A stretch of DNA of 64,000 nt, taken from NCBI GenBank assembly GCA_052327205.1, contig CM126209.1:205964001-206028000 (forward strand), written 5' to 3'. Source of the stretch: Somniosus microcephalus. Taxonomy: Eukaryota. Positions within the stretch are counted from its first letter, which is position 1. Each line of letters opens with the position of its first letter. Below, piece after piece: positions 33,226-61,540 of this stretch. The notes beneath the pieces are model-generated. The model was not told the origin of the DNA and made no database searches. It saw nothing but the letters and a program-made list of their open reading frames with translations. Made by a program: the position numbers and the translations under genes.

Positions 33226-36200
33226 TGTTGTGTATGTACCTTTAAGAGAATAACTGGTCTCAGACTGCAGTACCGGCAGTGACCACCCCTGTATAAAAGG
33301 CGCTAGAGAGCCTCGGTTGTTTAGTTTAGTTATGGACTTCCACCAGTAAACATTGTTTTCACTCCTGCTAGTCCGTGTCTAAATCATTCACGGACTTAAC
33401 ATTGGCGACGAGTAAGAAACGAACTTACCTGCAACTCAGCAGCAGCTCCGACGACGTTGTTGAAGGTCGGAGACAGAAAAAAAAAAAGAGGCCATTGAAA
33501 CTCGAGAAACGGGCGTCGACCGTCAATCATCGATTTAAAAAAATTGCAGGAGCGACTTCCAGAGCCAGGCTGGGTTCCTCGGTCCGTGGTTTCCCAGCTA
33601 ATCGGGCTGGTGGCAGGTAGTGCTCTGATCCTTCCTGGGCTGCGGCGGGCTGAAGCTCGATTGGGTGGCCTTTCAACGGGGCCGGGCAGCGAGTCGGGAA
33701 GCAAAGAGAGAGAGAGAAGGTGGAGCACACAGGGCGTGGCTGGCGTTTCGAAGCCGGGCAGCGTTCGGACCTCAGAAGAGGGAGGAAAGTGTCCCAGAGG
33801 GTCCACTCCATGACGGGAAAATAATAAAAGAAAAAGAATACGCGCAAGAAACCGTGGAAAGCAGCACTAACAACAGCGGGGAAGAAGACAAAGCGCGGGA
33901 GGCGCCATTTTGTTAAATCGGAGAAGAAGGCAAAGCGGGGGAGGCGCCATTTTAGATTTGCAAGATGCCGAAGACTGGCTGTATCACTGCTTTTGATAAT
34001 ACATTAGAGGACTGGACCACGTATGTGGAAAGAGTCAAGGTATATTTCGAGGCAAAAGAAATAGCGGAGGGGAAAAAGGCATCAATATTGCTAAACTTAA
34101 TGGGCGCTAGAACGTACGACCTATTGCGGGATCTGATTACTCCATCCAAACCGAAGGCGAAGAGTTTTAATGAAATTGTTGCTGTTCTACAGGAGCACTT
34201 AAACCCTGCACCGCTGTTGATAGCAGAAAGATTTAAATTCCACAGGAGAACTCAGCACAAACATGAGAGCAATGCTGAGTATCTTACGGAACTACATAAG
34301 CTATCAAAGCACTGCCAGTTCGGAGCAGGACTGGCAGATACCCTACGGGACAAATTTGTCTGTGGACTCCTGAGTGAAGGAACACAGAAGAAGTTACTCG
34401 CAGAAAAAGAGCTGACGCTAGATAAGGCTTTCAGCGTGGCAGTATCGTATGAAGCAGCAGCCAGGGGAGCTGCAGAAATTCAACAAAAACCACAGGAATA
34501 CGGCACCCACGAAATGACACGGGGATTTGCAAAATGTTATCGCTGCGGCAGAACTAACCATGACCAGAAGGACTGCTGGTCCAAAGACAAAATATGCAGA
34601 CAATGCGGGAAGCTTGGACACATTGCACGAGTTTGTAGGTCTGGGAAGAAGACCAGCGACAACAAAAAGGCTACTAAGGAACCGTACAAGAAAGTACAAA
34701 AGATGACGGACAGTAGTTCCGAAGACCAGATGAGCGATAGTGAATCCGGAAACAGGAGACTAAGCTGTCCCAAACTTCACAATGTAATCGCAAAAGAGGA
34801 TCACCGAACCATTTGGGTCACCCTCACGATAGCAGGGTCCCAAGTTAAAATGGAATTGGATACAGGATCAGCGCTAACCGTCATGAATCGACGAGACTAC
34901 GAGCGGCTATTTTCACACATACCCTTGAGAGAGACATCCATCGTCTTGACGACGTATACCGGGCAAAAAGTATACCCCAGAGGAAAAATAAGGGTGTCTG
35001 TCGAATACAATGGCAAGAAAATACGGAAATTGTATCTCTACATACTGCCAAATGGTGGACCACCGTTATTGGGACGGGAATGGATCAGGAAGATAAACTT
35101 AGATTGGCATTCCATTCATGCAATGACGGTGGACGGTAAAAAAGATGAAGACGTCACTCCTGGACGATTGTCAACAATCTTAGCTAACGCCAAAGAGGTA
35201 TTTCAACAAGAACTGGGCACGCTTAAAGGCGTAACCGCCTCGTTAAAAATAGAAGAGAATGCAGTTCCCAAGTTTTTCAAAGCGAGACCGGTACCATATG
35301 CAATTCGCCCAGCCGTCGAGGCAGAGCTGGAGAACCTGGAGAAGGCGGGCGTGTTGTCTAAGGTCGACTGGAGCGAGTGGGCGATACCCATCATTCCTGT
35401 CATGAAGAAAACGTTAAGCAATACGTCCGGAGAGCCAAGGAAGATTCGCATCTGTGGGGATTTCAAGGTGACGGTGAACCCTGTCCTTCACACAGTACAA
35501 TATCCTCTTCCAAGGATAGAAGACATCTTCGCCTCACTGTCTGGAGGGAAGCGTTTTACAAAAATTGACCTAGCACAAGCATATTTGCAGATGGAGGTTG
35601 AAGAGTCCTCTAGGAAGTATCTCACGATAAACACTCACAAGGGTCTTTACCAGTATCTTCGATTGGTATTCGGAGTAGCATCGGCTCCGGCGATATGGCA
35701 AAGAGCGATGGAACAAGTCCTGCAAGGGATTCCGGGGACTCAGTGTTACTTGGACGACATCCTTGTAACAGGTGAAGATGACAGTGAACACCTTAACAAC
35801 CTAGAACAGGTGCTCACTAGACTACGGGAACATGGGCTGCGAGCCAACCGCCCCAAGTGCGAATTTTTTAAGAAACAGATATCGTATTGTGGCCACGTGA
35901 TTGATGAAGAGGGGTTACATAAGTCCCCTGACAAAATTGAAGCGGTTGTTAAGGCCCCAGCGCCTGAAAATGTGTCACAACTGAGGTCATTCCTCGGGTT
36001 GGTGAATTACTATCATAAGTTTTTGCCGAATTTGTCGACAATTCTGCACCCACTGAACGCCCTGCTACGAACGGGGGTAGCATGGAAATGGAGCGATGAT
36101 TGTAAACGTGCTTTTCAGAAGAGTAAGGACTTAATCACTTCGAAGGAAGTATTGGCTCACTACAACCCAGCACTGCCAATCAGGCTGGCGTGTGATGCGT

Positions 36201-38209
36201 CTCCCTACGGCATTGGGGCGGTACTGTCACATAAATTCCTTGATGGTTTGGAGAGGCCGATAGCTTTTGCGTCACGCTCGTTAACTTCTGCCGAGCGTAA
36301 CTATGCCCAGATTGACAGAGAGGCCCTCAGCCTAGTGTGGGGTGAAGACGTTCAATCACTATCTGCACGGTCAAAAATTTACTCTACTAACCATTCATCA
36401 ACCTCTTGTCTCCATGTTCCAACCCTCAGAAGGGCGTACCGATAATGACAGCAATGGCTGCAGAGATGGTCCCTTTTCCTAGGGGCACACCAATATGACA
36501 TCGAGTACAAAGGAACTAAACAGCATGGAAATTCTGATGGATTGTCACGTCTACCGTTGCCGACGGTGGAAGAAGAAGACCTTGCAGCGGATCCAATGGA
36601 GTTATTCCACTCGACCATAGTCGAATATCTCCCTGTGACGAATGCAAACATAGAAAAGGAAACACGGAATGACCCGACACTATCACGGGTCTATGATTTA
36701 ATGGTGAAGGGATGACCAGCACATGGTGAACCACTGCTGCCAGCATTCTCACCGAGAAGACAACAGCTGTCAGTGTGCAGAGGAACCTTGATGTGTGGAT
36801 CCAGAGTAGTAATTCCACCTAAGTTGACGGATAGAGTGCTCAATGAGCTTCATGAGGGTCATCTGGGTGGGGTAAAAATGAAGAACTTAGCCAGAGCGTT
36901 TGTGTGGTGTCCGGGAATCGATAGAGAAATCGAAGAGATGACCAAGAGCTGTGCAGGTTGCCAGAAGGTCCAAAACGCCCCACCACAAGCTCCTCTGCAT
37001 CCATGGGAGTGGCCCTCATCTCCATGGCAAAAGGTGCACATTGATTTTGCTGGTCCCTTCATGGACTCGATGTTTTTAATTGCGGTGGATGCACATTCAA
37101 AGTGGCCAGAGGTAATAAAAATGTCCTCAACCACCACGGAAAAAACTATCACAGTTTTACGAACCATATTCGCCAGGAATGGGCTGCCTGAACAGATTTG
37201 CTCTGACAATGGACCACAGTTTGTGTCTGAAGAGTTCCGGAGGTTCTTAAAGAACAATGGTGTTAAGCATTACACATCTGCCCCATATCATCTAGCCACT
37301 AATGGATTGGCTGAGAGGTTTGTCCAAACATTCAAGAAGGCTATCAAGGCAATGTGTAATGAAGATATACCCCTACAACACAAGGTGGACATCTTCTTGT
37401 TTGCCTACCGGAATGCGACACATGCGGTTACCAACCAAACTCCAGCCATGATGTTCTTCAATCGAAGACTACGATGCCACTTGGATTTGGTTAAGCCAAA
37501 CGTCCGAAGAGATGTGGAGAACAGGCAGTTTCAGAATATGAATGAAAGGCCGACCAGGAGTTTTAAGATAGGTCAACCAGTTTTGGCCCGGGACTACCGC
37601 ACTGAGAAATGGCAGCCAGGAACGATTTGTACACGACAAGGACCTCTCATGTATACCGTGGACGTTGGGGAGAGCATTGTAAGACGCCATGCTGACCAGA
37701 TTCTAGAGTCACTGGAAAACGTCAACTCCACACCACGATCTGATACACCTGGTAATGAAATCGACGTTCCAATTGCAGCTACCGCAGAACCGGTAATATT
37801 GGAAGCAGATGAACCAAACAACGACATTGATTCCGACTCAACATTGCCAGAAGAACCTGTTACCCCAAAGAGGCGTTATCCAGACAGAATCAGGAAGCCT
37901 CCTCAAAGACTGAACTTATAATTGCTTAAACTTAACCACTGTATCTAGTAACAGTAATTGTGATTGTAATTCGTTATCATTTAGTTGTTAAATGAATGTT
38001 ATGTACTGTTTATCTAAAAGGGGAGGAATTGTTGTGTATGTACCTTTAAGAGAATAACTGGTCTCAGACTGCAGTACCGGCAGTGACCACCCCTGTATAA
38101 AAGGCGCTAGAGAGCCTCGGTTGTTTAGTTTCGTTATGGACTTCCACCAGTAAACATCTGTTGTTTTCACTCCTGCTAGTCCGTGTCTAAATCATTCATG
38201 GACTTAACA
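33226..38209 (+). mobile_element. Full-length Ty3/Gypsy (Mag clade), copy 2
   Basis: LTRs at 33226-33401 and 38030-38209 (2 substitutions plus a 4-bp indel), TSD GGCAC, PBS TGGCGACGAG at 33403-33412, PPT AAAAGGGGAGGAA. Confidence 0.95.
33965..37921 (+). pseudogene. gag-pol: gag-pol polyprotein, frameshifted in RNase H
   Basis: 826-aa ORF (gag, PR, RT, start of RH) plus a 382-aa integrase ORF. Frameshifts lie around 36340-36430 and there is a stop near 36713. Confidence 0.93.
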
Positions 38210-39255: not shown

Positions 39256-39849
39256 GGTATATGACAATGCAGAGGGTGCCTCTCATCTGATGTTGACTGT
39301 GTGCCATATTAAATATGGCAAGTGAAAATGCTGCATGTTCACACACTGGTATAAGGTGGGTAATGTCCTGGGCATTTAGGGTGCACACATCTCTCTCATT
39401 TCTCTGCCCAACATATGCCTCTTTTATATCTACTTGCGAGAGAAGATTACATAATAGGAGACACCAAATGCAGATAGGAGGAGATTTTTCCAAGCTGCGA
39501 ACCTTGACTGGGGAGGGCTCTGAAGAACTTAGACACACAGGCAATAGAGGAAGTTGGGAAAGGGGAGGCTAGAAGCCTAGCTAAGGCTCATGGCTAATAC
39601 CATGCTTTTTCTCATAAGGGCGTCAACATAAGGGCAGATCGTTATTCAGTGCAGAAGGTATCAACATAGCTGTCTGGTATACCTCCTCCTCCACAACCTC
39701 CAAACATGAAGCATATGCCAGAGGAATACAAATATATATCACACAATATCAAATATCATGGGGTAAAAATACTGAAGTGCAGATTTAAGAAACTGATTAT
39801 GCAGAGGTAAGACCATTTATCCCTAAGCTGGAAAATCTCATGTCACTAG

Positions 39850-41290
39850 TGTCATGAATCTTATCATGACTCATGAAGTAACACTGGGCAGCCAGCTGGT
39901 GGCGCCGTCCAAGGAGTATAAATACTCGGGCATGGGCCCAGCTTGCTCAGGATGTTTCTGTAACCAGGAACTAGTGATGTAACTAGAAATCTCATGGTTT
40001 TGAAGCAGTTGATTAAAGCCTTGTTTTATACTCAAACCAAGTGCTCAGTAGTCTTTTTACATCAATTTAATCAACTGAACCTGCTCCACGCTCTGAGTGG
40101 TTTTGGAAACAGACGGCTACGACTCAAACCGTAGAAGGGAACTCAGACGAAGTAATCGATCCATCATGGAGAAACTACTCAGACCCGCTTGTCTCGACCT
40201 GGACCCGAATACACTTACAGCTGCTAAGGTATGGAAACACTGGTATCGTACCTTTAGCAACTTCCTTGAGGAATGTGGTGAGAATGTTCCTAATAAGTTA
40301 CGAATGCTTGCCAACTATGTATCCCCTCATGTGTTTGACTATATCAAAGACTGTGTAGACTATGACGCCGCTATCCAAATACTACAGCAACTATATGTTA
40401 AGTCCCCAAATGAAATTTTTGCTCGGCATCTACTGGCCACAACTTGACAACAACCCGGGGAATCACTTGATGAATTCCTTCAGAAACTTCGCAGGCTCAG
40501 CAAGGATTGTAATCTTAAAGCTGTCACAGCTGAGCAGTACCAGGAGGAGTTAATTCATGATTCCTTTATTAATGGGATTGCGTCTCCCTTCATACATCAG
40601 CGTCTGTTGGAGAATAAAACCCTCAAGTTACAGGCTGCCTATGACCAGGCATGCTCTCTAGACTTAGCAAAGAAGAATGCAGACACCTACCTTTCACCAC
40701 GTGCACAGGCTGCTGCTATCACTTTTAGTGACTCCTTCGACAGGCCTCGGGCGGAAGCCCTCACTGATGATGACTCCCACCTCATTGATGACAACCCTGG
40801 CCACCCGAAGCCAGGACACCGGTCAATCCCCGGCTACCAACCAAGATGACGCCAGCTCTGCACCTGTAGGGACCCACACCCAGAGTCACAATCTCCCCAG
40901 TCTTCCACAGGTCGATCAAGGCGACACGGGCCCCGTCGATCTACCAGTATGGACCAAGCGACCCAGGAACCAAGACACGGTTTGAGGAGACATGCCTTCC
41001 AGCCACAAGCGAAGATCTAAAAGACTGCGCCTATTCGTGGTCCGCCTAATCCACTAGAAGGAAGTAGTCGGACTTCCAAAACTTTCAGGCGGGAAGGATG
41101 TCATGAATCTTATCATGACTCATGAAGTAACACTGGGCGGCCAGCTGGTGTCGCCGTCCAAGGAGTATAAATACTCGGGCATGGGCCCAGCTTGCTCAGG
41201 ATGTTTCTGTAACCAGGAACAAGTGATGTAACTAGAAATCTCATGGTTTTGAAACAGTTGATTAAAGCCTTGTTTTATACTCAAACATCA
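39850..41290 (+). mobile_element. Internally deleted non-autonomous Gypsy-type LTR element (gag remnant only)
   Basis: LTRs at 39850-40064 and 41099-41290 (3' copy has a 23-bp deletion), TG...CA ends, TSD ACTAG. TATA at ~39917, PPT CAGGCGGGAAGGA, gag-like MEKLLRPACLDLDPN...KVWKHWYRTF from 40167. No TGG PBS. Confidence 0.88.
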
Positions 41291-43266
41291 ACTAGCAACC
41301 ATGCAGCTATGCAGCAAAGAACCATTATTGGCTAATTAAAAATGGAACTAGCAGGAGGGTATTGAAAATAGTTTAAGAAATTTCTGTAAATAATTCTTCT
41401 CTTGAAGAATTTGTTTCACTTAAGAACTGAATGTCTTGGATGCTTTTCAGGTGCTCCAGGTGCATCTTATCTAAATTTACATAAAAACCCAACCTTTGAG
41501 ATTTTTGCTTAGTACGTGCTTCCAGGTGGCATTAATGAGAGCAATGTACATCCGGTATAGATTGGGCCTCAAGCCTGTGCACCAAATGTGGTGTCTAATG
41601 CACAGCAATGCTAGAGGCACCACAGATTGCATTACTGGCCACAGAATTTCAATGGACCAAGTCACTTCTCATTCATTCCCACTGCGCAGAATATCAATAG
41701 GCAAAACCTCATCCAAATGATTTCCATCATATAGAATCCCAATGAATCAAATCCCTTTCCAACTCATACTAGTTTACACAATTCCAACGGACCAAATCTA
41801 CTCCTGTATTCTCACATTGTACATAGACCCATGGAAGTTTACAGCACAGAAGAATGCCATTGCACCCATCGTGTCAGTGCTCTATGCTAGAGCAATCCAA
41901 AACTAATCACACTGCTCCATTCTCTCCTCATAGCCCTGCATCTTCCTCTGTCAAATCACAGTGTGACCACAACCCCTTCCCACGTGGTCCCATTGTACAC
42001 AGAATCATGTTGGAACCATAATCTATTTTATTAATTCCCATTGTACAGAATTACACGGGAGTATAACCCATCCAGTACCATTGTACTGATGTCCTTGTTC
42101 AGTCAGAACAATTGAATACATCATTTTAATTGAAGTACACGATAACCCCCAGTTGTTCACAGGCTAGAGCCTTTGCATGGTGATTATTTTAGTCCGTGAC
42201 CTAATCTTTCCTGAACACAGCTGCACATATTTAGACTCTAAGGTTTCATAATACTATTAATTTTTGTTAAATTTATTATCACCCAAAAATGTTTTGTGTT
42301 GTCTTTGATTCATTTGCAGCATGAATGATCAAGGGAACTGAGACAGAAACATTATAAATTGGTCATTTGCAGTTGAGGGAAATCCTAATTGAGGCACAGA
42401 ATTCTGTGACAATTGAGCTATGAGGTATGTGTTTAGCATCATTCAGCTGTGTTTAGAATTACATTCCCTATAAGATACTAACATGACACACAACTACATG
42501 TTTATGTGTCCCACCACAGGAAACTTGCACTTGCACTCACCATCCCTCAGAAAATCTGTTTGAATTCATTCTGGGAAGAATCCAGCAGGCACTTCCCACA
42601 ATAATAACAGGCTCTGACATTTGCCGTACAAAGGGCATATGTAAGGGAAACAGATGATCATTTTGAACTTGGTTTTTCCGCTTCAAAAATATGGTGATTG
42701 GAAAGGTTAAGATTTATCTTTGGTATTAAAACACCTGAATGCAGCTAATGAACCTCTCCTTTGATGTTACTAAAACTAAAATTTACAATCCCTCATTTTC
42801 TAGCTCTGGGAATGATTATGAGATTACATGTGAAGCTGAATATTGTAAACATGAATCTAAACACATTCAAACAGGAGGAGGATAACTCTATTCGGCCAAT
42901 GGCTTTGGAGTCCAAGAGTAAACCTCAAGTCTGCAGCCTTTCAAATAAAGAAACAACATTTTATCATTGGGCAGAAACAGACTTGGCAAAACACTAATGT
43001 TGCATCACAAAAAGGATTGAATATTTATTGAGAAATCGTTCTCTATCAACATTAGAGTTTTGCAAAGTTTGTTTTTGTCTCAGTATAGCTTGGGTATAAT
43101 TATCAAATCAAGATTCTAGATTATAATTGGAGGAATTTTGGTATCTTTATTGATTTGACCTCACCATTTCTGCAGATAAAGTGCAGTTTGTCAATGAATA
43201 TCCAAATTTATCTGTATGTACGTCCAATGATTTAGTCATTGTATAGTTTTCAGATGTTGGTTAACC

Positions 43267-44481: not shown

Positions 44482-46813
44482 ACTAGGGCTGTAGAGAAGG
44501 CTTTAAACTAAATAGTGGAGTGGGGGGGGGCGGAGATCCAGATGAGCGGGAATTTAAGAAGTCAATGAGAAATGAGAAAACAACAGAGCAGGATAAAGAT
44601 GGGGAAAATAATAACCAGAGTGTGACACGAAGGGACAGAATGTTTAAAAATAAGAGTGCAACAGAAAATGGGGCCAAAACAAGGAGAAATGGTAAAAAGA
44701 CAAAGTTAAAAGCTCTACATCTGAATGCACGCAGCCATCGTAACAAGATAGATGAGTTGACGGCACAAATAGATACAAATGGGTATGATCTGATTGCCAT
44801 TACAGAGACATGGTTGCAAGGTGATCAGGGCTGGGAACTGAATATTCCAGGGTATCTGACAATTTGGAAGGATGGACAGAAAGGAAAGGGAGGTGGGATG
44901 GCTTTGTTGGTAAAGGATGGGATCAGTGCAGTGGTGAGAAGTGATATTGGATCAGAAGATCAAGATGTAGAATCCGTTTGGGTGGAGATAAAAAATAATA
45001 AAGTGAAAAAGTTTCTGGTGGGTATAGTCTACAGGCCCCCGAATAGTAGCAATACTGTTGGACAGAGTATAAATCAACAAAGAATGGAGGCCTGTAAAAA
45101 AGGTACGGTAATAATTGTGGGTGATTTTAATCTACATATTGATTGGACAAATCAAATTGGTCATGGTAGTCTTGAGGAGGAGTTCATAGAGTGCATCCGG
45201 GATGGTTTCCTAGAACAGTATATAATGGAACCAACCAGGGAGCAGGCTATCTTGGATCTGGTACTGTGTAATGAGACAGAATTAATAAATGATCTCATAG
45301 TAAAGGATCCTCTAGGAAAGAGTGATCATAGCATGGTTGAATTTCAAATTCAGTTGGAGGGTGAGAAAGTTGTATCTCAAACCAGTATCCTGATCTTAAA
45401 CAAAGGCAAGTACAATGAAATGAGGGCAGAACTGGCTAAAGTGGACTGGAAACATAAATTAAAGGGTAAGACAGTTGAGGAGATATTTCATAACTCTCAA
45501 CAAAAATATATTACAGTGAGAAAGAAAGATTTTAAGAGCACCATCCATGGCTAACTAAGGAAGTAAAGGATGGTATCAAATTAAGAATGAAGGCATACAA
45601 TGTTGTCAAGATTGGTGGGTGACCAAAGGATTGGAAAAAAAATTTAAAACAGCAAAGGATGACTAAAAAAATAAAAAAGAGAGAGAAGATGAATTATGAG
45701 AGAAAACTGACAAGAAACATTAAAACAGATAGAGCTTCTACAGGTATATAAAAAGGAAGAGAATAGCTAAAGTAAATGTTGGTCCCTTCGAGGATGAGAC
45801 TGGGGAATTAATAATGGAGAACGGGGAAATGGCAGAGACTCTGAACAAATATTTTGTATCTGTCTTCAGAGTAGAAGACACTAACAACATCCCAAAAATG
45901 GATAATCAAGGGGCCACAGGGAGGGGGGAACTAAAGACAATCATTATCACTAAGGAAATAGTACTTGGTAAAATAATGGGACTAAAAGACGACAAGTCCC
46001 CTGGACCAGATGGCCTGCACCCCAGGGTCTTAAAAGAAGTGGCTGCAGAGATAGTGGATGCATTGGTTGCAATATACCAAAATTCCCTGGACTCTGGAGA
46101 GGTCCCAGCGGATTGGAAAACCACAAATGTAACACACCTATTTTAAGAAAGGAGGGAGACAGAAAGCAGGAAACTATAGACCAGTTAGCCTAACATCTGT
46201 CATTGGGAAAATGCTGGGGTCCTTCATTAAGGAAGCAGTAGCAGGGCATTTGGAAAATCATAATGCAGTCAGGCAGAGTCAGCATGGTTTTATGAAAGGG
46301 AAATCATGTTTAACAAATTTGCTGGTGTTCTTTGAGGATGTAACGAATAGGGTGGACAAAGGTGAACCAGTATATGTGGTGTATTTGGATTTCCAGAAGG
46401 CATTTGATAAGGTGCCACATAAAAGGTTACTGCATAAGATAAGAGCTCATGGAATTGGGGGTAATATATTAGCATGGATAGAGAATTGGCTATTGAACAG
46501 AAAATAGAGAGTCAGGATAAATGGGTCATTTTCCAGTTGGCAAATGGTAACTAGTGGGGTGCCACAGGGATCGGTGCTGGGGCCTCAACTATTTACAATC
46601 TACATTAATAACTTGGATGAAGTGACTGAGTGTAATGTAGCCAAGTTTGTGGAAGATACAAAGATGGGTGGGAAAGCAAGTTGTGTAGAGGACTCAAAGA
46701 ATCTGCAAAGGGATATAGACAGGCTAAGTGAATGGGCAAACATTTGGCAGATGGAGTATAATGTGGGAAAGTGCGAGATTATCCACTTTTGCAGGAAAAA
46801 TAAAAAAGTAAAT
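44482..46813 (+). mobile_element. CR1 LINE copy D: ORF1 end plus decayed ORF2, 3' part missing
   Basis: APE ORF 44520-45554 and RT fragments to 46810. It ends abruptly at the LTR starting 46814 and does not resume after 48580. Confidence 0.92.
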
Positions 46814-48580
46814 TGTAGGAACGGAGGTTCCTATCAAAAGACTGAGTTCAACTCAGATAATTAAATTAATGAACTTTAATGATAACAAACGAGTTTAAAC
46901 TGGAAACTGCTAGGACACATCAATAACAGGTATATTCTCTCTGAGGACTCCACGAGGACTGATCCCCTGATCAGGAGAGTGACGTCATGACGTCATCACG
47001 TTCTTCCCGCCATTGGGGTATCACGTGACTAACGGCATGATGTCATCATGTGCTTTAAAGGTAACTGGCATTGTACAGTCAAACAGTGTAATTAAAGGTA
47101 CAGGCACAGACAGTAACTACATTGCTGTTAAAGGAATTATGTACAACCGCTCTGAGTCCTTTGGTGGCTCCGCCACATGCGCCCCCCCAGAATTGTCTTT
47201 AACAGAAAAGGTTAGGCGAGGAGGAGGCCTGATGAGCCTGTCCGATCGACTTCGATACCATACAAAGCGTTGGCCACTGAAGCAGACCTGGACCCGCCGT
47301 GTCCCACAAGTATGAATCGCACCCCCATTGGCAGCTTGGAGGGGAGAACCGCGCCTGCCGGACAGAAGGTCGAGGACTGACGCAGGAAGGATGCTGCACT
47401 GTGCCCCTGTGTCGCACAAAAAACGATGGCCCGAGATGGAGTCGGTTAAATAAAGTAGTTTTCCAGAATCGCCGATCGCCATCGTGGCTGCAGGGCACGC
47501 CCCGGAGTCGGTGTTCTTGATGCGCAGTTGCTTGTTCGGTGTTCTGGGCACGAAACTGCAAGGCGGACGGCAGCTTCTGGCCTTCACGCCAAACCGAGTG
47601 TGGTAATAACAGAAACCGGTTGTTGGAGGCGTCGAGGCAGGGCCCTTTGGGGCGGGGCGTCTCGTGACGGCGCAGTTTGTTGTCGGACCGCGTATATTTT
47701 ATCCGCCTCTTCGACGCGCGCTATGCAATCCCTGGCGTCCGATCTGGTGAGGGCCACCTGCACCTGCTCGGGCAGTTGACTGAGGAACAGTTCGCGGAAC
47801 AGGAAACATTGCGGTTCAGACCCCAGGAGTGTGAGCATCTGGCTCATCAACTCCGAAGGTTTGGAGTCTCCTAATCCGGGCAGCGTGAGTAGGTGGTGTG
47901 CGCGCTCTGCCTTCGTAAGGCCGAATTCCTGCACTAGCCGTGCCTTAATGGCGACATACTTGTCGGTGGCTGGGGGGTTCTCCAGTAGGCTGATGATCCT
48001 CGACGCCGTCGAGCTGTCGAGTGCGGAGACCACGTAAAGATAACAGGTCTGATCCTGCACGACATTGCGGAGCTCGAACTGCGCCTCCGCTTGTACGAAT
48101 CAGGAGGCCGCCTGTTGCTCCCAAAATTGGGGGAGCTTCAAAGCCACTGTGTTGGCTTCCATCAGGGCCCTGCGTACCGTTTCCGCTGCGAAGAACGTCC
48201 GCGAGGATTCGGGGTCATCAATGTAGGAGTGCTTGAACTCCTAACGAAAGTACTGAGACTGAAACTAGCAGTTAACCAAACGTGGTTTAATGCACTAGTA
48301 AAAGTTACAAACAAAAGCGCAGGAGAAACTCTATACAGGTCTGTACACCAACTGGTTCCACGAGGACAGAGGGGGAACACCTCTCCCCTCTGACGTCATG
48401 ACATCATCACGTTTCCCACCGTTGGGAACATCATGTGACCTGCGTGATGACGTCATCGCGCTGGATCGCCATTTTACCGAACCCGTGCTGTTAATACAGA
48501 GCAAACACTTAAAGGTAACAAGCCCCTGTTAAAGGCAATTATATACATTACTGCAAGAGTCTCTTGGTGGCTTTGCCACA
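46814..48580 (-). mobile_element. Non-autonomous CsRN1-type Gypsy (gag + protease only) with two dissimilar LTRs
   Basis: LTR-like blocks TGTAGGA...GCCACA at 46814-47177 and 48222-48580, a degenerate tRNA-Trp PBS (TGATGACCCCGA, 48220-48209), and a PPT at 47178-47190. gag starts at 48162, protease motif FLCDTGA is present, then the sequence jumps to the integrase tail (YRSRSDRLIRPPPRL). No TSD. Confidence 0.85.
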
Positions 48581-48790: not shown

Positions 48791-50166
48791 TGTTGTGTAT
48801 GTACCTTTAAGAGAATAACTGGTCTCAGACTGCAGTACCGGCAGTGACCACCCCTGTATAAAAGGCGCTAGTAAGCCTCTGTAGTTTCAGTTTCCCGATT
48901 GACTCCTTTCAGTAAAGACTTGTTTTGTTCAACTCCTGCTGTCCGTGTCTCAATCATACATGGACATAATACTGGCGACGAGCAGATACGAACTTACCTA
49001 CAGTCTGCACCACCTCCTGGGATCCATTCCTGAAGCGAAGTGAGCAGAGGTCGAGGCCAGAAGGAAGAAAGAAGCAGTAGAAATGGGCATCGACCGTGGG
49101 CATCCACCCCTGTGTTAGCGGAGTTGAAGATTGCTGGAGAAGCTGTCGAAAGCGGGGCCTGGTACCTGTCGACGTTGCTTCAGCTAATCGGGCTGGTGGC
49201 AGGTAGCACACTGATCCTTCCTGGGCTGCGGCGGTCGCGAACTCGAGCGGGTTGCTTGCAACGGGGCCGAGCAGCATTGTCGGGAAGAGGAGAGAGAGAG
49301 GGTGGAGCACACAGGGCGCGGCCGGTGCTACGAAGCCGGGCTGCGTATAGACCCGAGAAGAGGGAGGCAAGAGTCCCACAGGGTTGTTCCACGACAGAAA
49401 ATTAATTAAAAAAAGAAATATTAAACGCGCAGGAAACTGCAAGGAGCTGCAGGTTGCAACGGAAACCGCGGAAAGCAGCGCTAGCAACAGCGGGGAAGAA
49501 GGCAAAGCGTGGGAGGCGCCATCTTAATCAGCGGGGAAGAAGGAAAAGCGTGGGAGGTGCCATTTAGTTAAATCGGGGAAGAAGGCAAAGCGCGGGAGGC
49601 GTCATTTTGATTTTCAAGATGCCGAAGACTGGCTGTATCACTGCCTTTGATAATACAATAGAGGACTGGACCACGTATGTGGAAAGTGTCGAGGTATATT
49701 GCGAGGCAAACGAAATAGCCGATGAGAAAAAGGCATCGGTATTGCTAAACTTAATGGGTGCTAGAACGTACGGCCTGTTGCGGGACCTGATTACTCCAGC
49801 CAAACCGAAGGCGAAGAGTTTTAACAAAATTGTTGCTGTCCTACAGGAACACCTAAACCCTGCACTGCTGTTGATAGCAGAAAGATTTAAATTCCACAGG
49901 AGAACTCAGCATAAAGATGAGAGCAATGCTGAGTACCTTACGGAACTACGCAAGCTATCAAAGTACTGCCAGTTCGGAGCAGGACTGACAGATACCCTAC
50001 GGGACAAATTTGTCTGTGGACTCCTGAGTGAAGGAACACAGAAACATAGAAACATAGAAACATAGAGATAGGAACAGGAGTAGGCCATTCGGCCCTTCGA
50101 GCCCGCTCCGCCATTCAATGAGATCATGGCTGATCTTCGTCTGAGATCATAGCTGATCTTACCAGT

Positions 50167-53076
50167 TCAGTACCCCGTCCCCGCCTTTTCTCCGTAACCC
50201 TTAATCCCCTTAGCCTTCAGAAATATATCCAATTCTCTCTTGAAAATATTTATTGAATTAGCCTTCGCAGCCCTCTGTGGCAGGGAATTCCACAGGCTCA
50301 CCACTCTTTGAGTGAAGAAATTCTTCCTCATCTCTGTTTTAAATGATTTGCCCGCTATTTTTAGACTGTGGCCCCTGGTTCTGTGCTCCCCGGCCATTGG
50401 AAACATTCTCTCTGAATTCAGCCTGTCCAGGCCTGCCATAATTTTATATGTTTCGATGAGATCCCCTCTCAATCTTCTAAACTCCAGTGAGTACAAGCCC
50501 AAACTATTTAATCTCTCTTCGTAGGTCATTCCCGCCATTACAGGTATCAGCCTGGTGAATCGCCGTTGCACTCTTTCCATGGCAAGAACATCCTTCCGCA
50601 GATGGGGCGACCAAAACTGTACACAATACTCCAGATGCGGTCTCACCAGCACCTTGTACAGCTGTGGTAAGGTATCCCTATTCCTATACTCGAACCCCCT
50701 TGATATGAAGGCCAACATACCATTTGCCTTCTTAATCGCCTGTTGCACCTGCATGCTCTCCTTCAGTGACTGGTGCACAAGAACACCCAGGTCCCTCTGC
50801 ACTTCCCCATCTCCCAATCTATTGCCATTTAGATAATAATCTACCCTCCTGTTTTTACCCCCAAAGTGGATAACCTCGCATTTATCCACATTATAGTGCA
50901 TCTGCCACGTATCCGCCCATTCCCCCAACCTGTCCAAATCGCACTGTAGCCTCCTGACATCCTCATCAGAGCCCACCCCTCCTCCTAGTTTAGTGTCGTC
51001 AGCGAATTTGGAAATATTGCATCCAATTCCCTGATCCAGATCATTTATATATATTGTGAACAGCTGGGGTCCCAGGACAGATCCTTGCGGCACCCCGCTG
51101 GTCACTGCCTGCCACTCCGAAAACGAGCCGTTTATTCCAACTCTCTGTTTTCTATCCGCCAGCCAGTTCTCTATCCACGTTAATACTTTGCCCCCAATCC
51201 CATGAGCCTTAATTTTGCATGATAATCTTTTGTGTGGAATCTTATCGAAGGCTTTCTGGAAGTCAAGGTACACCACATCCACTGGCTCTCCCCCATCTAT
51301 TTTACCAGTTACTTCCTCAAAAAATTCCAGCAGATTAGTCAAACACGATTTACCCTTTGTAAATCCATGTTGACTCTGTCCGATCCTTTCCCCATTTGTC
51401 AAGTGCTCCGCTATTTTATCCTTAATAATGGACTCTAGCATTCTGCCCACAACCGATGTAAGGCTTACTGGTCTATAATTCCCTGCTTTCTCTCTACCCC
51501 CCTTTTTAAATATTGGGGTAACATTAGCTACCCTCCAATCCACGGGTACTGTTCCCGAGTCAATGGAGTTCCGGAAGATGATCCTTAGAGCATCTGCTAT
51601 CTCCAGGGCCACCTCCTTAAGTACCCTAGGATGTAGTTTATCAGGCCCCGGGGATTTGTCGGCCTTCAGTCCCCTCAACTTACCCAGCACCATATCCCTA
51701 GAGATACTAATTTCTGTCAGCTCCTCCCTCTCATTAGTCCCTATGTTTGCCGATATTCCTGGGAGGTTATTTGTGTCCTCCTTTGTGAATACAGAACCAA
51801 AGTATGAGTTTAATTGGTCTGCCATTTCCTTATTCTCCATTATATATTCTCCCGAATCGGACTGCAAGGGACCGACTTGGGATTTTACCAGTCTTTTCCT
51901 CCTGATATACCGATAAAAGCTTTTGCAGTCTGTCTTTATGTTTGCTGCAAGTTTACTTTCGTATTCTATTTTCCCCTTCCTGATTAATCCCTTTGTCCTC
52001 TTTTGCTGTATCTTGTACTGCCCCCAATCTTCCGGTCTGGTGCTTTTTTTTGCCAGTTGATATGCCCTTTTTTTTGATTTTATGCTGTCCCTAATTTCCC
52101 TCGTTATCCACGGTTGAGTCACCTTTTTAGGTTTATTTTTGTGCCAAACCGGTATAAACATGTTCTGGAATTCTTCCATTCTATCTTTGAATGCTTGCCA
52201 TTGTCTATCCACTGTCAATCCCCCCAGAAACACCACCCAATCAATCTTACCCAATTCCCGTCTCATACCCTCGTAATTCCCTTTATTTAAGTTCTGGACC
52301 TTAGTCTCTGATTCAATTTCCTCACTCTCCATCTCGACTGAGAGCTCGATCATATTATGATCGCTCTGACCCAAGGGGCCTCGTACAAGAAGATTGCTGA
52401 TAAGTCCCTTCTCATTGCACAATACCCAGTCTAAAATGGCCTGATCTCGAGTCGGCTCCTCGACATATTGGTCCAGATAACCGTCCCGAAAACATTCCAG
52501 GAATTCCTCCTCCTCAGAATTTTTACTAGTTTGGGTAGTCCAATCAATATGTAAATTAAAGTCACCCATGATGACAGCTGTGCTCTTATCGCACGCTTCT
52601 CTAATTTCCCTTTTTATGCCTTCCCTCACCTCCATATTACTATTTGGAGGCCTATATATCACACCCACTAACGTTTTCCTCCCCTTGCTATTTCTCATTT
52701 CTACCCATACAGATTCCGTTTCATCCGAGATAATATCCTTCCTTTCCATTGCATTAATCCCCTCCTTTACCAGCAATGCTACCCCACCTCCCCTACCTTT
52801 TTGCCGATCCTTCCTAAATATTGTATATCCCTGGATGTTAAGTTCCCAGCCTTGCCCACCCTGCAGCCACGTTTCTGTAATCCCAATCAAATCATACTTG
52901 TTTACCTCTATTTCCACAACTAATTCATCCACCTTGTTCCTAATGCTTCTAGCATTAAGATACAAAGCCTTCAGGCTTGCTTTTTTCACACTCTCATTAT
53001 GAATTAGTTTGGCCCTTTGTGTTTCTCTCCTTTGCTTATTGCTTCTCACCTTTCTACCATCTATTTCTGACTTCAT
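50167..53076 (-). CDS. CR1 ORF2 (APE endonuclease + reverse transcriptase), 969 aa, uninterrupted
   Basis: YLNARSIRNK, GITETW, GDFN, SDHN, YLDFQKAFD, GVPQGSVLGP and FADD are all in one frame. Confidence 0.93.
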   Translation of the reverse strand: MKSEIDGRKVRSNKQRRETQRAKLIHNESVKKASLKALYLNARSIRNKVDELVVEIEVNKYDLIGITETWLQGGQGWELNIQGYTIFRKDRQKGRGGGVALLVKEGINAMERKDIISDETESVWVEMRNSKGRKTLVGVIYRPPNSNMEVREGIKREIREACDKSTAVIMGDFNLHIDWTTQTSKNSEEEEFLECFRDGYLDQYVEEPTRDQAILDWVLCNEKGLISNLLVRGPLGQSDHNMIELSVEMESEEIESETKVQNLNKGNYEGMRRELGKIDWVVFLGGLTVDRQWQAFKDRMEEFQNMFIPVWHKNKPKKVTQPWITREIRDSIKSKKRAYQLAKKSTRPEDWGQYKIQQKRTKGLIRKGKIEYESKLAANIKTDCKSFYRYIRRKRLVKSQVGPLQSDSGEYIMENKEMADQLNSYFGSVFTKEDTNNLPGISANIGTNEREELTEISISRDMVLGKLRGLKADKSPGPDKLHPRVLKEVALEIADALRIIFRNSIDSGTVPVDWRVANVTPIFKKGGREKAGNYRPVSLTSVVGRMLESIIKDKIAEHLTNGERIGQSQHGFTKGKSCLTNLLEFFEEVTGKIDGGEPVDVVYLDFQKAFDKIPHKRLSCKIKAHGIGGKVLTWIENWLADRKQRVGINGSFSEWQAVTSGVPQGSVLGPQLFTIYINDLDQGIGCNISKFADDTKLGGGVGSDEDVRRLQCDLDRLGEWADTWQMHYNVDKCEVIHFGGKNRRVDYYLNGNRLGDGEVQRDLGVLVHQSLKESMQVQQAIKKANGMLAFISRGFEYRNRDTLPQLYKVLVRPHLEYCVQFWSPHLRKDVLAMERVQRRFTRLIPVMAGMTYEERLNSLGLYSLEFRRLRGDLIETYKIMAGLDRLNSERMFPMAGEHRTRGHSLKIAGKSFKTEMRKNFFTQRVVSLWNSLPQRAAKANSINIFKRELDIFLKAKGIKGYGEKAGTGY

Positions 53077-53123
53077 ATGACTTCCCTCTTTTCCACTACC
53101 TAGGTTCCCATCCCCCTGCCAAA

Positions 53124-53280
53124 TTAGTTTAAATCCTCCCGAACCGCCCTAGAAAATATTACCCCGAGGACATCGGCTCCCTCACAGTTCAGGTGTAGAC
53201 CGTCCCCTTGGTACAGGTCACTCCTCCCCAGGAACTGGTTCCAATGCCTCAAGAATTTAAATCCCTCTCCCTTGCACCTT
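53124..53280 (-). pseudogene. CR1 ORF1 C-terminal fragment (SGNH esterase-like domain)
   Basis: Manual translation RCKGEGFKFLRHWNQFLGRSDLYQGDGLHLNCEGADVLGVIFSRAVREDLN*, with the DGLH block-V motif. Confidence 0.8.
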
Positions 53281-53959
53281 AACAGAAGAAGTTAACTCTC
53301 AGAGAAAGAGCTGACGCTAGATAAGGCTTTCAGCGTGGCAGTATCGTACGAAGCAGCAGCCAGGGGAGCTGCAGAAATACAACAAAAGCCACAGGAATAC
53401 GGCACCCACGAAATGACACGGGGATTTGCAAAATGTTATCGCTGCGGCAGAACTAACCATGACCAGAATGACTGCTGGTCCAAGGACAAAATATGCAGGC
53501 AATGCGGAAAGATGGGACACATTGCACGAGTTTGCAGGTCTGGGAAGAAGACCAGCGACAACAAAAAGGCTACTAAGGAACCGTACAAGAAAGTACAAAA
53601 GATGACGGACAGTAGTTCCGAAGACCAGATGAGCGATAGTGAATCCGGGAACGGGAGACTAAGCTGTCTCAAACTTCACAATGTAATCACAAAAGAGGAT
53701 CACCGAACCATTTGGGTCGCCCTCACGGTAGCAGGGTCCCAAGTTAAAATGGAATTGGATACAGGATCAGCGCTAACCGTCATGAATCGACGAGACTACG
53801 AGCGGCTATTCTCACACATACACTTGAGAGAGACATCCATCGTCTTGACGACGTATATGGGGCAAAAAGTATACCCCAGAGGAAAAATAAGGGTGCCTGT
53901 CGAATTCAACGGCAAGAAAATACGGAAATTGTATCTCTACATTCTGCAAAATGGTGGAC

Positions 53960-56900
53960 TGTGGCGGATCGCCACCTAAACGGGCGCAATCCACTTTTCC
54001 GTCCGTGGACAATAAATCGGGCACCTCGCCTTTAAGAAGCATGCTGCCTTTAAGGCATGACAAAGGAGCGGGCGTCGTCCTCAGTGTGTACTCAAAAGTG
54101 CGGGTGTCGCCCTCAGGCTGTTTTCGGGTTTAGCAGAGAGAGGAGCTGGGGCAGCCATCTCTCAAGAGAATGTAATAAAAGCCATGTGTTCCTCAGATCG
54201 GTTCGGCCTCCATTCGTGTTCCGCGGCAGCCGCAACATTGGTGACCCCGACGCTCAGAACGTATTCCGAGCACTGCAATGGCGGACACGAACGCAGTTTC
54301 CGTGAAACTGCCGGAGTTTTGGGAAAACCAGCCCGAAGCCTGGTTCCTCCAAGCTGAGCCCCAATTCCGGCTGCGACACATCACCACAGATGGGACGAAT
54401 ATTGACTACCTCGTCGCATCACTTGGTATCTCCACAGTCACGAAGGTCTGGATAGCGCTGCAGAACTCAGCAGAGGAGGGCAAGTATGCACATCTTAAGG
54501 CCGCGCTCCTTAAAAAATTTACGACCTCGACATACCAGCGAAACTGCCGCCTCCTCGACCTTCCAGGCCTCGGTGACGCCTCACCGTCAGACCTCCTCTC
54601 CCACATGCTCTCACTCACCGACGAGAGCCCACCCGGGTCCCTCTTCCGCACGCTGTTCATCCGCCAGCTACCTCCCAGCATCCGTCCAGCGATCGTGGCG
54701 TCCGGCCTCACGGACCTAGAAGCCCTGGCCGACGAGGCCGACAAGCTGCTGTCCACTCACTCCAGCCACAACGTCGCTCCGGACCTGGCAGCCACAGCCT
54801 GGGCGCGCCCCTCACCGGCCACCACACGGCCACAAGGCATTGCCACGGGGCCCACGGGGCCTTCGCGCCCTACAGACCCGGGCTACTGTTACTACCACGC
54901 ACGGTTCGGCACCAGGGCACAACGGTGCACACCTCCCTGCTCCTTCAAGTCCGCCCCCGTACCAGCCCCCGCGATGGCCGTGGGCCACGCGGGCTACCTG
55001 CTGTACGTCACGGATGACAAAACCGGCCGCCGGTTCCTGTGCGACACTGGAGCTCAGCACAGCATCATCCCGGCCTCCGCCCTCGACATCCAAAAGGGCG
55101 AATGAGGACAGGCGCTGGCTGCCGCTAACGGCTCGGACATCCGGACGTATGGCACCCGCACAGTCACCCTCGACCTCGCTGGTCGCCGCTACCGATGGGA
55201 GTTCATCACTGCCAAGGTACTCTCCCCTCTCATCGGCGCAGACTTCCTGTGCGCCCACGGCCTACTGGTAGACATCCCTCGACACCGCCTCGTGGACATG
55301 AACACCATGTCTCCCATCCTGGGCGCCATGGCCCCCCGTCAACCCGCCGACATGGCGTCACAGTGCCACGCCCGGGCCACGGATGACTACTCGGCACTGC
55401 TGGCCGAATTCCCGGCCCTCACCAACCCGACCTTCTCCGCGGAGGTCGCCAAACACGGGGTGGAACACTTCATCCCCACCACAGGCCCACCAGTGTACGC
55501 CCACGCCCGCAGGCTGGACCCGGCCAAACTGGAGGTCGCGCGCACCGAGTTTGCCACGATGGAACAGCTCGGCATCATCCGCCGCTCCAACAGTCCCTGG
55601 GCCTCCCCACTCCACATCGCCCCCAAACCAGGCGGGGGTTGGCACCCCTGCGGGGATTACCGCCGCCTCAACGATGCCACCACCCCTGATCGGTACCCCG
55701 TGCCGCACATTCAGGACTTCTCGGCTAGACTGGCCGGCCGCTCAGTCTTTTCCAAAGTTGACCTGGTGCGCGGCTACCACCAAGTCCCCGTCCACCCCGC
55801 GGACGTCCCCAAGACAGCCGTAATCACCCCCTTCGGGCTTTTCGAGTTCCTGCGGATGCCCTTCGGCCTCAAAAATGCGGCCCAGGCATTCCAACAGCTC
55901 ATGGACTCGGTCCTTCGGGACCTGAAGTTCCTGTTCGTCTACCTGGACGGCATCCTGGTAGCCAGTTCCTCCAAGCAGGAACACCTCGAACACCTCGCAT
56001 CCTGTTCGGGTGCCTCAGCGACCACGGGCTCATCCTCAGCCCAGCCAAGTGCCAGTTCGGCCTGGACAAGATCGACTTCCTCGGCCACCACATCACCCAT
56101 GCTGGGGCCATTCCCCTGCCCACCAAGGTGCAGGCCGTCCAGCAATTTCCCTGCCCCACCACCATCAAAGGACTCCAGGAGTTCCTCGGGATGGTGAATT
56201 TCTACAACCGCTTCATCCCCAAAGCGGCATCCCTCATGAAGCCCCTGTATGAAGCCCTCCAGGGCAGGAGCGGCAAGATGGCGGTCGAATGGACGGCAGA
56301 CGTATCAGCCGCCTTCAACTCCACCAAGACCGCGCTCACCGACGCCACCCTGCTCGCGCAGCCACGGCCCAATGCCAGAGTAGCTCTCAACACGGACGCC
56401 TCCGACCACGCGGTCGGCGCCGTGTACGAGCAGTGGGTCGACGGCGCCTGGCAACCACTTGCCTTCTTCAGCCGCCAACTACGCCCCCCGGAGGACAAGT
56501 ACAGCACCTTCGACCGCGAGCTCCTCGCGCTGTACCTGGCGGTCCGCCATTTTCGGTTTTTGCTGGAGGGCCACCCCTTCACTGCGTTTGTCGACCACAA
56601 ACCCCTGACATTCGCAATGGCAAAGACAACCGACCCCTGGTCCGCCAGGCAGCAGCGCCAGCTCGCGGCAGTGTCCGAGTTCACCACGGACATCCAACAC
56701 GTCTCCGGCCGAGACAACGTGGTAGCCGACTGCCTCTCCCACCCCGCCATCCACGCCGCACACCTGGCAGTCGACTACACTCAACTCGCAGCAGACCAGC
56801 TCACGGACCCTAATCTGCTCTCCGCACCTACCAACCTACCAGGGCTACGCCTGGCCGACGTCGCCTGCGGCCCGACCGCAGTCACGGTCAAGTGCGACAT

Positions 56901-58387
56901 ATCCCTATCTCAACCTCGGCCCGTCGTCCCAGCGTCCTGGCGCCGCCGGGTATTCGAGATTCTCCACAACCTCTCCCACCCCGGCGCCCGCGCATCCATC
57001 AAATTGGTAGCCAACCGCTTTGTCTGGCGCGGCCTTCGCAAGGATGTGCGTACTTGGGCCAACTCCTGCCTAGCCTGCCAACGGGCCAAGGTGCAGCAAC
57101 ACACGAAAGCACCCCTCGAGGAGTTCACCATCCCTTCACGTAGATTCGACCACATCCACGTGGACATCGTCAGGCCCCTGCCGCCGTCGCAAGGCCACAC
57201 GCACTTGCTGACGATCGTCGACCGCACTACGCGCTGGCCCGAGGCAATTCCACTGACCTCTACCACCACCGCCGACATCGCCAGGGCCTTCGTCAGCACC
57301 TGGATCACACGGTTCGGCGTCCCCTCCGACATGACGTCGGACAGAGCTCCGCAATTTACCTCTGAACTCTGGACCGCCATCGCACGCAATCTCGGGGTGA
57401 CCATTCACCGCACCACAGCGTACCACCCCCAAGCCAACGGACTGTGTGAGCGGTTCCACAGATCCTTGAAGGCATCTCTTCGAGCCAGCCTCCAGGACGG
57501 CACCTGGACCGACCGACTCCCGTGGGTCCTCCTCGGCCTGCGCTCCGCGGTTAAAGAAGACCTCCACGCATCGGCAGCAGAGGTCGTGTACGGCCAGCCG
57601 CTGCGCGTACCCGGCGAGTTCCTGCCCACCGCCACGACACCCTGGTCAGCCGACCAGCAACGCCACGACTTCGCCTCACCGGCGCTACAGTGCACCCCGG
57701 TGCCCATTGCCCGGCACGGCGAATCCACCTCACACGTCCCGCTAAGCCTGCACCAGGCATGGTTCGTTTTCGTCCGGCACGATGCCCACCACGGACCCCT
57801 TCAACCCCCGTACGACGGGCCCTACAAGATGCTACAGGCTGGGGACAAATTTTTCGACCTACAAGTGGGCGACAGGACTGAAAAAGTGTCGGTTGACCGA
57901 CTCAAGCCAGCACACTCGGAGCCCGGTGAGCAGGTCCCAGTAGCTCGTCCACCGCCACGCAGCCGACCTGCCCTCAAGCCAGTACACCCGGCTGCTCCAC
58001 GGCCGGCCGTTCCACGTCCACCGGCGTCCTACAAGAGCCGTTCCGGCCGGCCCATCAGACCGCCGCACCGTCTCGTCCACACCTCCTAAGCGGATTCTGG
58101 GGGGAGCTGTGTGGCGGATCGCCACCTAAACGGGCGCAATCAACTTTTCCGTCCGTGGACAATAAATTGGGCACCTCGCCTTTAAGAAGCATGCTGCCTT
58201 TAAGGCATGACAAAGGAGCGGGCGTCGTCCTCAGTGTGTACTCAAAAGCGCGGGTGTCGCCCTCAGGCTGTTTTCGGGTTTAGCAGAGAGAGGAGCTGGG
58301 GCAGCCATCTCTCAAGAGAATGTAATAAAAGCCATGTGTTCCTCAGATCGGTTCGGCCTCCATTCGTGTTCCGCGGCAGCTGCAACA
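53960..58387 (+). mobile_element. Full-length CsRN1-type Ty3/Gypsy nested in copy 3
   Basis: 278-bp LTRs at 53960-54237 and 58110-58387 (4 mismatches), TSD GGAC, tRNA-Trp PBS TGGTGACCCCGACG at 54239-54252, PPT TCTGGGGGGAG. Confidence 0.95.
54278..58089 (+). pseudogene. gag-pol: Single-ORF gag-pol (CHCC gag motif, PR, RT, RH, INT) with one stop, one frameshift and a YLDG active site
   Basis: VKLPEFW..PEAWF, CYYHARFG..AQRC..PC and LCDTGA are present. TGA at 55103-55105 is in frame with 55292, and there is a frameshift near 55995. The integrase ORF 56128-58089 ends with a GPY motif. Confidence 0.92.
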
Positions 58388-61246: not shown

Positions 61247-61540
61247 TTGCTTAAACTCAACCAATGTATCTAGCAACCGTAATTGTGATTGTAATTAGTT
61301 ATCATTTAGTTGTTAAATGGATGTTATGTACTGTTTATCTAAAAGGGGAGGAATTGTTGTGTATGTACCTTTAAGAGAATAACTGGTCTCAGACTGCAGT
61401 ACCAGCAGTGACCACCCCTGTATAAAAGGCGCTAGTAAGCCTCTGTAGTTTCAGTTTCCCGATTGACTCCTTTCAGTAAAGACTTGTTTTGTTCAACTCC
61501 TGCTGTCCGTGTCTCAATCATACATGGACATAATAAGTAA

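Follow-up and report, generated by a model that had tools for sequence, protein, structure and literature searches.

The window, the whole stretch of 64,000 nucleotides of DNA that was analyzed, harbors an internally deleted copy of a Ty3/gypsy element of 1.44 kb (positions 39850-41290). All features of the element are read on the forward strand. Its TG...CA long terminal repeats (LTRs), polypurine tract and 5-bp target duplication are membership features of Ty3/gypsy. The target-site duplication has the same letters in its left copy (39845-39849) and its right copy (41291-41295). The 5' LTR of 215 nt (39850-40064) belongs to a family that is termed A here, and the 3' LTR (41099-41290) shows ~98% identity over 188 nt and a ~27-nt deletion near its end. 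The interior begins with a 5' fragment of gag (40166-40802), which is interrupted by a stop at 40445-40447 and truncated by an internal deletion of ~3.4 kb that took away PR, RT, RH and most of IN. The polypurine tract (41088-41098) occupies the position that it has in longer copies. The window additionally contains two Mag-like Gypsy elements (33226-38209 and 48791-61535, the second with nested insertions) and two LINE ORF2 copies that are presumably CR1-like (50167-53148 and 44487-46864; one a 993-aa open frame, one fragmented).

The 5' LTR carries a TATA box at 39917-39924, whose sequence is common to the sister families B and C. Transcription would start at 39945-39951 (TATA +28 to +34), a putative position that is transferred to family A from the primer-side end points of the sister families E, D and B. 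In families A/B and E, the TATA box overlaps a predicted hairpin (window 39911-39929; LTR of L212). Farther downstream, a 12-nt arm (40006-40017) ends in the poly(A)-type hexamer ATTAAA and is followed directly on its 3' side by a second helix (40018-40044, RNAfold) that is bulged in family A. A single A (40065) is the spacer that separates the LTR end from the primer binding site (PBS, 40066-40077), which lacks TGG and is complementary to the arm of the element's own LTR. The original prediction had described 40066-40077 as the exact reverse complement of 40006-40017, with ATTAAA in the arm, a TATA box starting at 39917 and no TGG tRNA site after the 5' LTR. Re-reading of the sequence bore out these coordinates, and TGG is also absent from the PBS of every family compared here (0 of 20).

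Family A is represented by 573 exact LTR-PBS junctions in the 6.4-Gb genome, and its longer copies measure ~4.6-4.8 kb. Longer relatives encode a single ORF with the Pfam order gag (CCHC)-protease-RT-RNase H-integrase, and the best solved relative is the Ty3 Gag-Pol. A GalEa copia identity, an idea suggested by the start of gag, was ruled out by this domain order. No chromo or SH3_Tf2-1 match was found in three of three long ORFs or in the integrase pieces of family A. An RT tree of 25 rows places the 17 focal rows together on a single branch (100/100), separate from the sushi-like, Mag-like and CsRn1-like rows; these labels (PF24626 match for sushi-like) follow our own reading and known motifs, in a tree without named reference sequences. 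Identity between the focal RT and elements of these three kinds from the same genome is 28-32%. The expectation that the element is not a chromovirus has thus held, given the missing chromodomain and an RT branch separate from the sushi-like elements.

Gag relatives amount to 75 matches among 440 candidates and are distributed over crustaceans, one mollusc, cnidarians and one scorpion; viral contigs yielded no relatives. Penaeus monodon majanivirus B has an annotated gag relative (P0028). A further relative (L140) is found on a bacterial MAG contig, likely as host contamination. One family A copy contains an insertion (L033:4249-8622, reverse complement numbering) that we take to be retrovirus-like from its motifs.

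A junction-anchored complement of 12 nt appears in 1 of 20,000 dinucleotide shuffles of the window LTR, and 25 of 30 close copies of the window element pair without a mismatch. The global folding energy of 39940-40170 is ordinary (z -0.24), so the signal consists of the anchored duplex and its covariation rather than of overall stability. Covariation was tabulated for 20 families, six from the element's own genome (A, B, C, D1, D2 and E), 13 from metagenome contigs and one from a genome contig. The metagenome search returned 39 loci, 10 of which were set aside as duplicates or for having no upstream DNA. The 29 examined loci comprise the 13 in the table, three duplicates, two decayed copies (1-2 mismatches) and 11 without an upstream LTR. 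The LTR ends of families A-E were verified against 3' or solo LTRs, and the anchor was placed by hand for L074 and three L091-type families.

All 20 families form a PBS/arm duplex of 8-18 bp with differing sequences, and the arm, of 9-18 bases, is located 24-76 nt upstream of the PBS. The covariation check on relatives that had been proposed for the element was run on this table and gives Watson-Crick pairs in 154 of 160 cells at positions 4-11, whereas shuffled partners (100,000 trials) average 98 and reach at most 126. The 11 distant representatives pair in 86 of 88 cells compared to 52 for shuffles (max 78), and slid registers pair in 12-49 of 160 cells. Compensatory changes are present even among close subfamilies. 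When copies are chosen by their PBS alone, an arm of at least 11 bp is found in 23/30 (B/C), 19/20 (D) and 18/20 (E). The spacer A occurs in 20/20 families, a count that is partly built into the anchor motif. A second helix with at least four contiguous pairs at the first base past the arm is predicted in 14/20 families by RNAfold, a figure that stands without a shuffle control. Covariation among the families shows that the PBS would pair in the RNA with the arm of the element's own LTR.

The priming looks independent of tRNA, as had been suggested, with a PBS that follows its own LTR arm across families and no TGG. Against four distinct host tRNAs (Cys, Lys) from essentially one array, the best match is 4-6 nt. 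A tandem tRNA-Cys array with a period of ~1.6 kb was observed in the same genome (G000:C24:42.9-43.2 Mb, L240-L268). The duplex might serve only to hide the 5' poly(A) signal, with priming left to another molecule such as an internal tRNA fragment. Such a role would fit the 13/20 families in which AATAAA or ATTAAA ends the arm, and with a start at TATA +30 the hexamer would be transcribed at both ends of the RNA, with a PBS behind the 5' copy only. However, in 7/20 families the duplex is retained although the hexamer is located in the loop (four) or no canonical hexamer exists (three), and conservation of the duplex is therefore independent of masking. Furthermore, the duplex sets in one base beyond the LTR, at the point from which priming has to proceed, the PBS sequences are too varied for one tRNA and track the arm, and G-U pairs occupy just 4 of 220 cells at positions 1-11. 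Masking as the only function is thus very improbable.

Masking of the poly(A) signal, which the original prediction had put forward, stands as a possible second job of the duplex and falls as a general one, with the hexamer inside the arm in 13/20 families and the duplex in 20/20. Beside self-priming, such a second job is conceivable, although we lean somewhat against it. In families whose arm terminates in the hexamer, this duplex would conceal it, and would do so only in the 5' LTR. The retroviral poly(A) hairpin, for example that of HIV-1, is a 5' LTR structure that is likewise able to hide the hexamer. There, the hairpin is formed within R/U5 and priming uses a tRNA, whereas the focal clade would mask the hexamer with its PBS.

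Tf1 is a demonstrated case of self-priming, a trait treated as a mark of the Tf1/sushi group. A sushi-like chromovirus element of the same genome (L233-L238, G000; found with PF24626) has an 11-nt self-complement ~30 nt past a TATA-like box and ~150 nt from the LTR end, a layout as in Tf1. A helix directly follows its primer, and its one-base spacer is the same as in the focal clade. The Mag-like elements of the window carry canonical TGG primer sites. The distance from the TATA or TATA-like box to the end of the arm is 75-103 nt in the focal families.

The 5' end of the primer can be approached through fold-back insertions, in which LTR-A-PBS is continued by an inverted copy of the LTR part that lies upstream of the arm. 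Family A has 36 such sites, B/C have 56 plus 8, D has 55 and E has 212, compared to 573 (A), 1712 (B/C), 2977 (D) and 3549 (E) normal LTR-PBS junctions. Fold-backs are ~2-6% as many as normal junctions, an approximate value as pattern lengths differ. The loci examined were 85 of 212 in E, 45 of 55 in D and 37 in B. In E (n=85), 26 inverted copies measure less than 39 nt, 10 measure 39-47 nt, 24 measure 48-56 nt, none 57-65 nt and 10 measure 66-210 nt, and 15 extend to the LTR start. In other words, 24/85 loci end at TATA +28 to +36 and 0 in the next 9 nt (p ~1e-7). A polymerase II start is expected ~30 nt past TATA, which is where the 48-56 nt group ends. As a caveat on this edge, RNA parameters place the base of a -6 to -7 kcal hairpin at +29 to +33; stronger RNA hairpins at +10, +47 and +59 are without a comparable pile-up, and DNA parameters place none at the edge.

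Six of 45 loci in D end at 43-46 nt, which corresponds to +29 to +32 from the TATA-like TTAAAT, and 20/45 reach the LTR start. In B, 33/37 primer-side copies reach the LTR 5' end, and 2-3/37 end near the predicted start (L389 at +30, L548 at +26 and L534 at +42). Sense sequence is resumed inside the element in 41 E loci at 36 different points, which marks them as independent events, and 12/14 short E fold-back elements have 5-bp target duplications and hence were made before integration. These structures are most simply explained if plus-strand synthesis ran along an attached capped primer as far as its 5' end and subsequently misprimed. The aberrant insertions put the RNA start ~30 nt past TATA and 45-70 nt before the arm 3' end, in agreement with the earlier suspicion that the pairing arm lies away from the cap end.

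Fold-backs could instead be DNA-level template switches at an inverted repeat, which would be silent on the primer and leave the duplex with another role. The many inverted copies that reach the LTR 5' end (33/37 in B, 20/45 in D, 15/85 in E), as from snap-back of plus strong-stop DNA, indicate that DNA snap-back makes fold-backs too. A DNA template, however, gives no edge at TATA +30, where no DNA hairpin base is found, and the target duplications of the short fold-backs place their origin before integration. The sushi-like element has an equivalent inverted repeat without such products (0 extended fold-back junctions against 451 exact normal LTR-PBS junctions). DNA-level switching as the whole explanation is extremely improbable. 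Two kinds of rearrangement were seen besides. In palindromic insertions, an LTR, complete or in part, is joined to U3-R in inverted orientation up to the LTR start (L278 and ~30 B, 20 D and 15 E loci); these insertions likely result from snap-back of plus strong-stop DNA. In a family D copy (L410), the stretch from arm to PBS is inverted in place and followed by normal leader and gag.

The fold-backs also bear on a plain Tf1-type arrangement, in which the transcript would begin at the arm itself, with an A 11 nt before the cut, and provide an 11-nt primer. The arm has A at -11 and G at -10, each in 17/20 families, the pairing often stops at 11-14 bp, and one D subfamily has a mismatch at position 12, all of which would suit so short a primer. 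But no TATA-like box was found ~30 nt before the arm in families A-E, unlike in the sushi-like control, and primer-side copies run far beyond the arm and stop at TATA +30, compared to 0/451 in the control with its 11-nt primer. A transcript that begins at the arm is thus quite unlikely. A second, trimming cut at the 5' side of the arm that leaves a short final primer is possible.

The 3' end of the primer may be reflected in a second set of insertions. In the window element, the RNA cut is predicted directly after 40017. In B, foreign DNA is joined exactly at the first base past the arm, the predicted cut, in 3/37 loci, and 4/37 loci fold back at most 1 nt from it. One B locus (L389) spans the predicted cut through U5 and PBS to the predicted cap. 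In 29 of the 30 A loci examined, the arm is followed by a T and the reverse complement of the last bases of the LTR (mostly 20), after which the sequence resumes at GCCT. No private variants are common to these copies (distance 5.4% within the group, compared to 4.8% to normal copies), and target duplications are present in 22 of 24 resolved cases. The A insertion is the product that is expected if strong-stop DNA ends at the cut, folds back via the second helix, and copies itself and the primer. It could also stem from a pause at the second helix without any cut. A U5-side end at the cut was seen in 0/45 D and 0/85 E loci. As a possible footprint of first-strand transfer, A/B LTR mosaics were considered and set aside; four cross the arm and three have a breakpoint in the 17-nt interval with the predicted cut, but this interval was bracketed by the design of the search, and the result is weak either way. 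A set of 27-against-0 mosaics around the TATA box proved to be a B subfamily in 15 loci examined.

The original prediction had considered the 3' R copy as the primer. Here, the arm near the RNA 3' end would pair with the PBS, be freed from the poly(A) tail by a cut and prime synthesis, and the 5' R would be copied to the cap. The same arm is present in the 3' copy, and in 14/167 loci (3/45 in D, 5/85 in E, 6/37 in B) the primer side follows U3 and the polypurine tract; these loci still fit a 3'-copy or a DNA-level route. A primer from the 3' copy, however, would run on into U3 and give no edge at the start site, whereas E and D have one, and its strong-stop DNA should run to the cap, whereas 7/37 B and 29/30 A loci stop or fold back at the arm 3' edge. 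The distance to the PBS is also 24-76 nt from the 5' arm, compared to ~4.5 kb from the 3' arm. The 5' capped copy is favored by the sharp edge at the predicted start, and priming from the 3' R is unlikely.

The preferred reading, to which we assign a probability of roughly three in four, is a Tf1-like self-priming from a 5' capped fragment that is cut after the arm, giving a long primer that is paired only by its last 11-17 bases. Pairing and insertion structures are observed, and from these and the Tf1 precedent we infer the cap position, the cut and the enzyme. Transcription would begin ~30 nt past TATA. The arm, 45-70 nt into the RNA, would then fold onto the PBS one base beyond the LTR end, and the second helix would stack at the arm 3' edge. 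By analogy to Tf1, the RNase H of the element, a domain found by Pfam in longer relatives, would cut between the arm and the following (G/A)CCT, a position suggested by the aberrant insertions, and yield a long capped primer that is paired only by its last bases. Judging from the same insertions, minus strong-stop DNA of 24-76 nt would end at the cut and jump to the 3' R. Subsequently, plus-strand synthesis might extend over the entire attached primer as far as the cap, and the flap, being unpaired, would sometimes misprime and generate the fold-back insertions. In the available part of a study on Ty3, a second round of plus-strand priming avoids use of the first product (PMC5371799), and the clade could by analogy share this route.

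RNA reads from two runs of a related species show a sense excess inside the element in one run (45-104 vs 9-22) but not in the other. No start site, poly(A) site or splice joint is callable from these two runs, in which read-through from solo LTRs swamps the LTR. A pyrimidine tract with AG that resembles a splice acceptor is present 20-76 nt upstream of the arm 3' end in several relatives (L140, L074, L079, L091, L093, L101, L211 and L215; counted without a control). It possibly marks an LTR intron; no splice joint was seen in the RNA reads of families A/B.

The focal clade resembles Tf1/Tf2 of Schizosaccharomyces pombe, Tj1 and the Tf1/sushi group in that the PBS is complementary to the element's own LTR and not to a tRNA. 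It differs from Tf1/sushi by the absence of a chromodomain and by an RT that is ~29% identical and placed on a separate branch. The arm of the focal clade usually ends in a poly(A) hexamer, unlike in Tf1/sushi, and its loop measures 24-76 nt compared to ~150 in the sushi-like control. The clade is a non-chromovirus Ty3/gypsy group that probably works like Tf1 yet lies outside Tf1/sushi, from which it departs in chromodomain, RT position and, judging indirectly from the primer-side end points, cap-end primer. According to the available text of PMC7175516, Tf1 RNA pairs through its first 11 bases with the PBS, and RNase H cleaves it between bases 11 and 12; these 11 bases constitute the primer, whereas that of the focal clade would measure 45-70 nt and be paired at its 3' end alone. 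An accessible portion of PMC11042837 states that the Tf1 primer gets copied into cDNA. In the predicted folds, the second helix of the focal clade lies within the LTR, whereas the three-duplex "pretzel" of Tf1, as outlined in the accessible part of 10.1101/2022.12.06.519325, involves PBS-adjacent sequence.

For plant elements, namely Tcn1 (Ty3/gypsy) and TAR/Houba/Osr-1 (Ty1/copia), self-priming has been predicted from PBS-LTR complementarity, according to the available section of PMC6317226. Tcn1 is a chromovirus and TAR a copia element, unlike the focal clade. The fungal GalEa copia elements have no tRNA PBS and a conserved hairpin, the Conserved Hairpin Site, at the PBS position, which is a further likeness, but both arms of that hairpin come after the LTR, and the available part of the report (PMC5445492) notes that an LTR complement was not found. 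Literature searches that did not extend to subscription papers (e.g. Butler 2001) or the notes in Repbase brought up no description of self-priming for this clade. As a new element of the present analysis, the data indicate that aberrant insertions preserve reverse-transcription intermediates, which inform on primer length and cut site.

The broader interpretation, which we hold at slightly less than even odds, is that of a widespread animal Gypsy clade (crustaceans, molluscs, cnidarians, scorpion and this genome) in which self-priming would have evolved independently of Tf1/sushi. Its capped 45-70-nt primer would be anchored only at the 3' end, one duplex would make the primer and silence the 5' poly(A) signal, and mis-copied insertions would map cap and cut to the base. 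A second Gypsy lineage that self-primes with a paired part far from the cap would mean that a cap-end position is not required, and primer formation would be linked to poly(A) site choice. It also raises the question of how plus-strand synthesis handles a primer without a stop signal; the 2-6% fold-back products suggest that it often fails. Finally, primer ends may be readable from aberrant insertions in any high-copy LTR family without a tRNA site.
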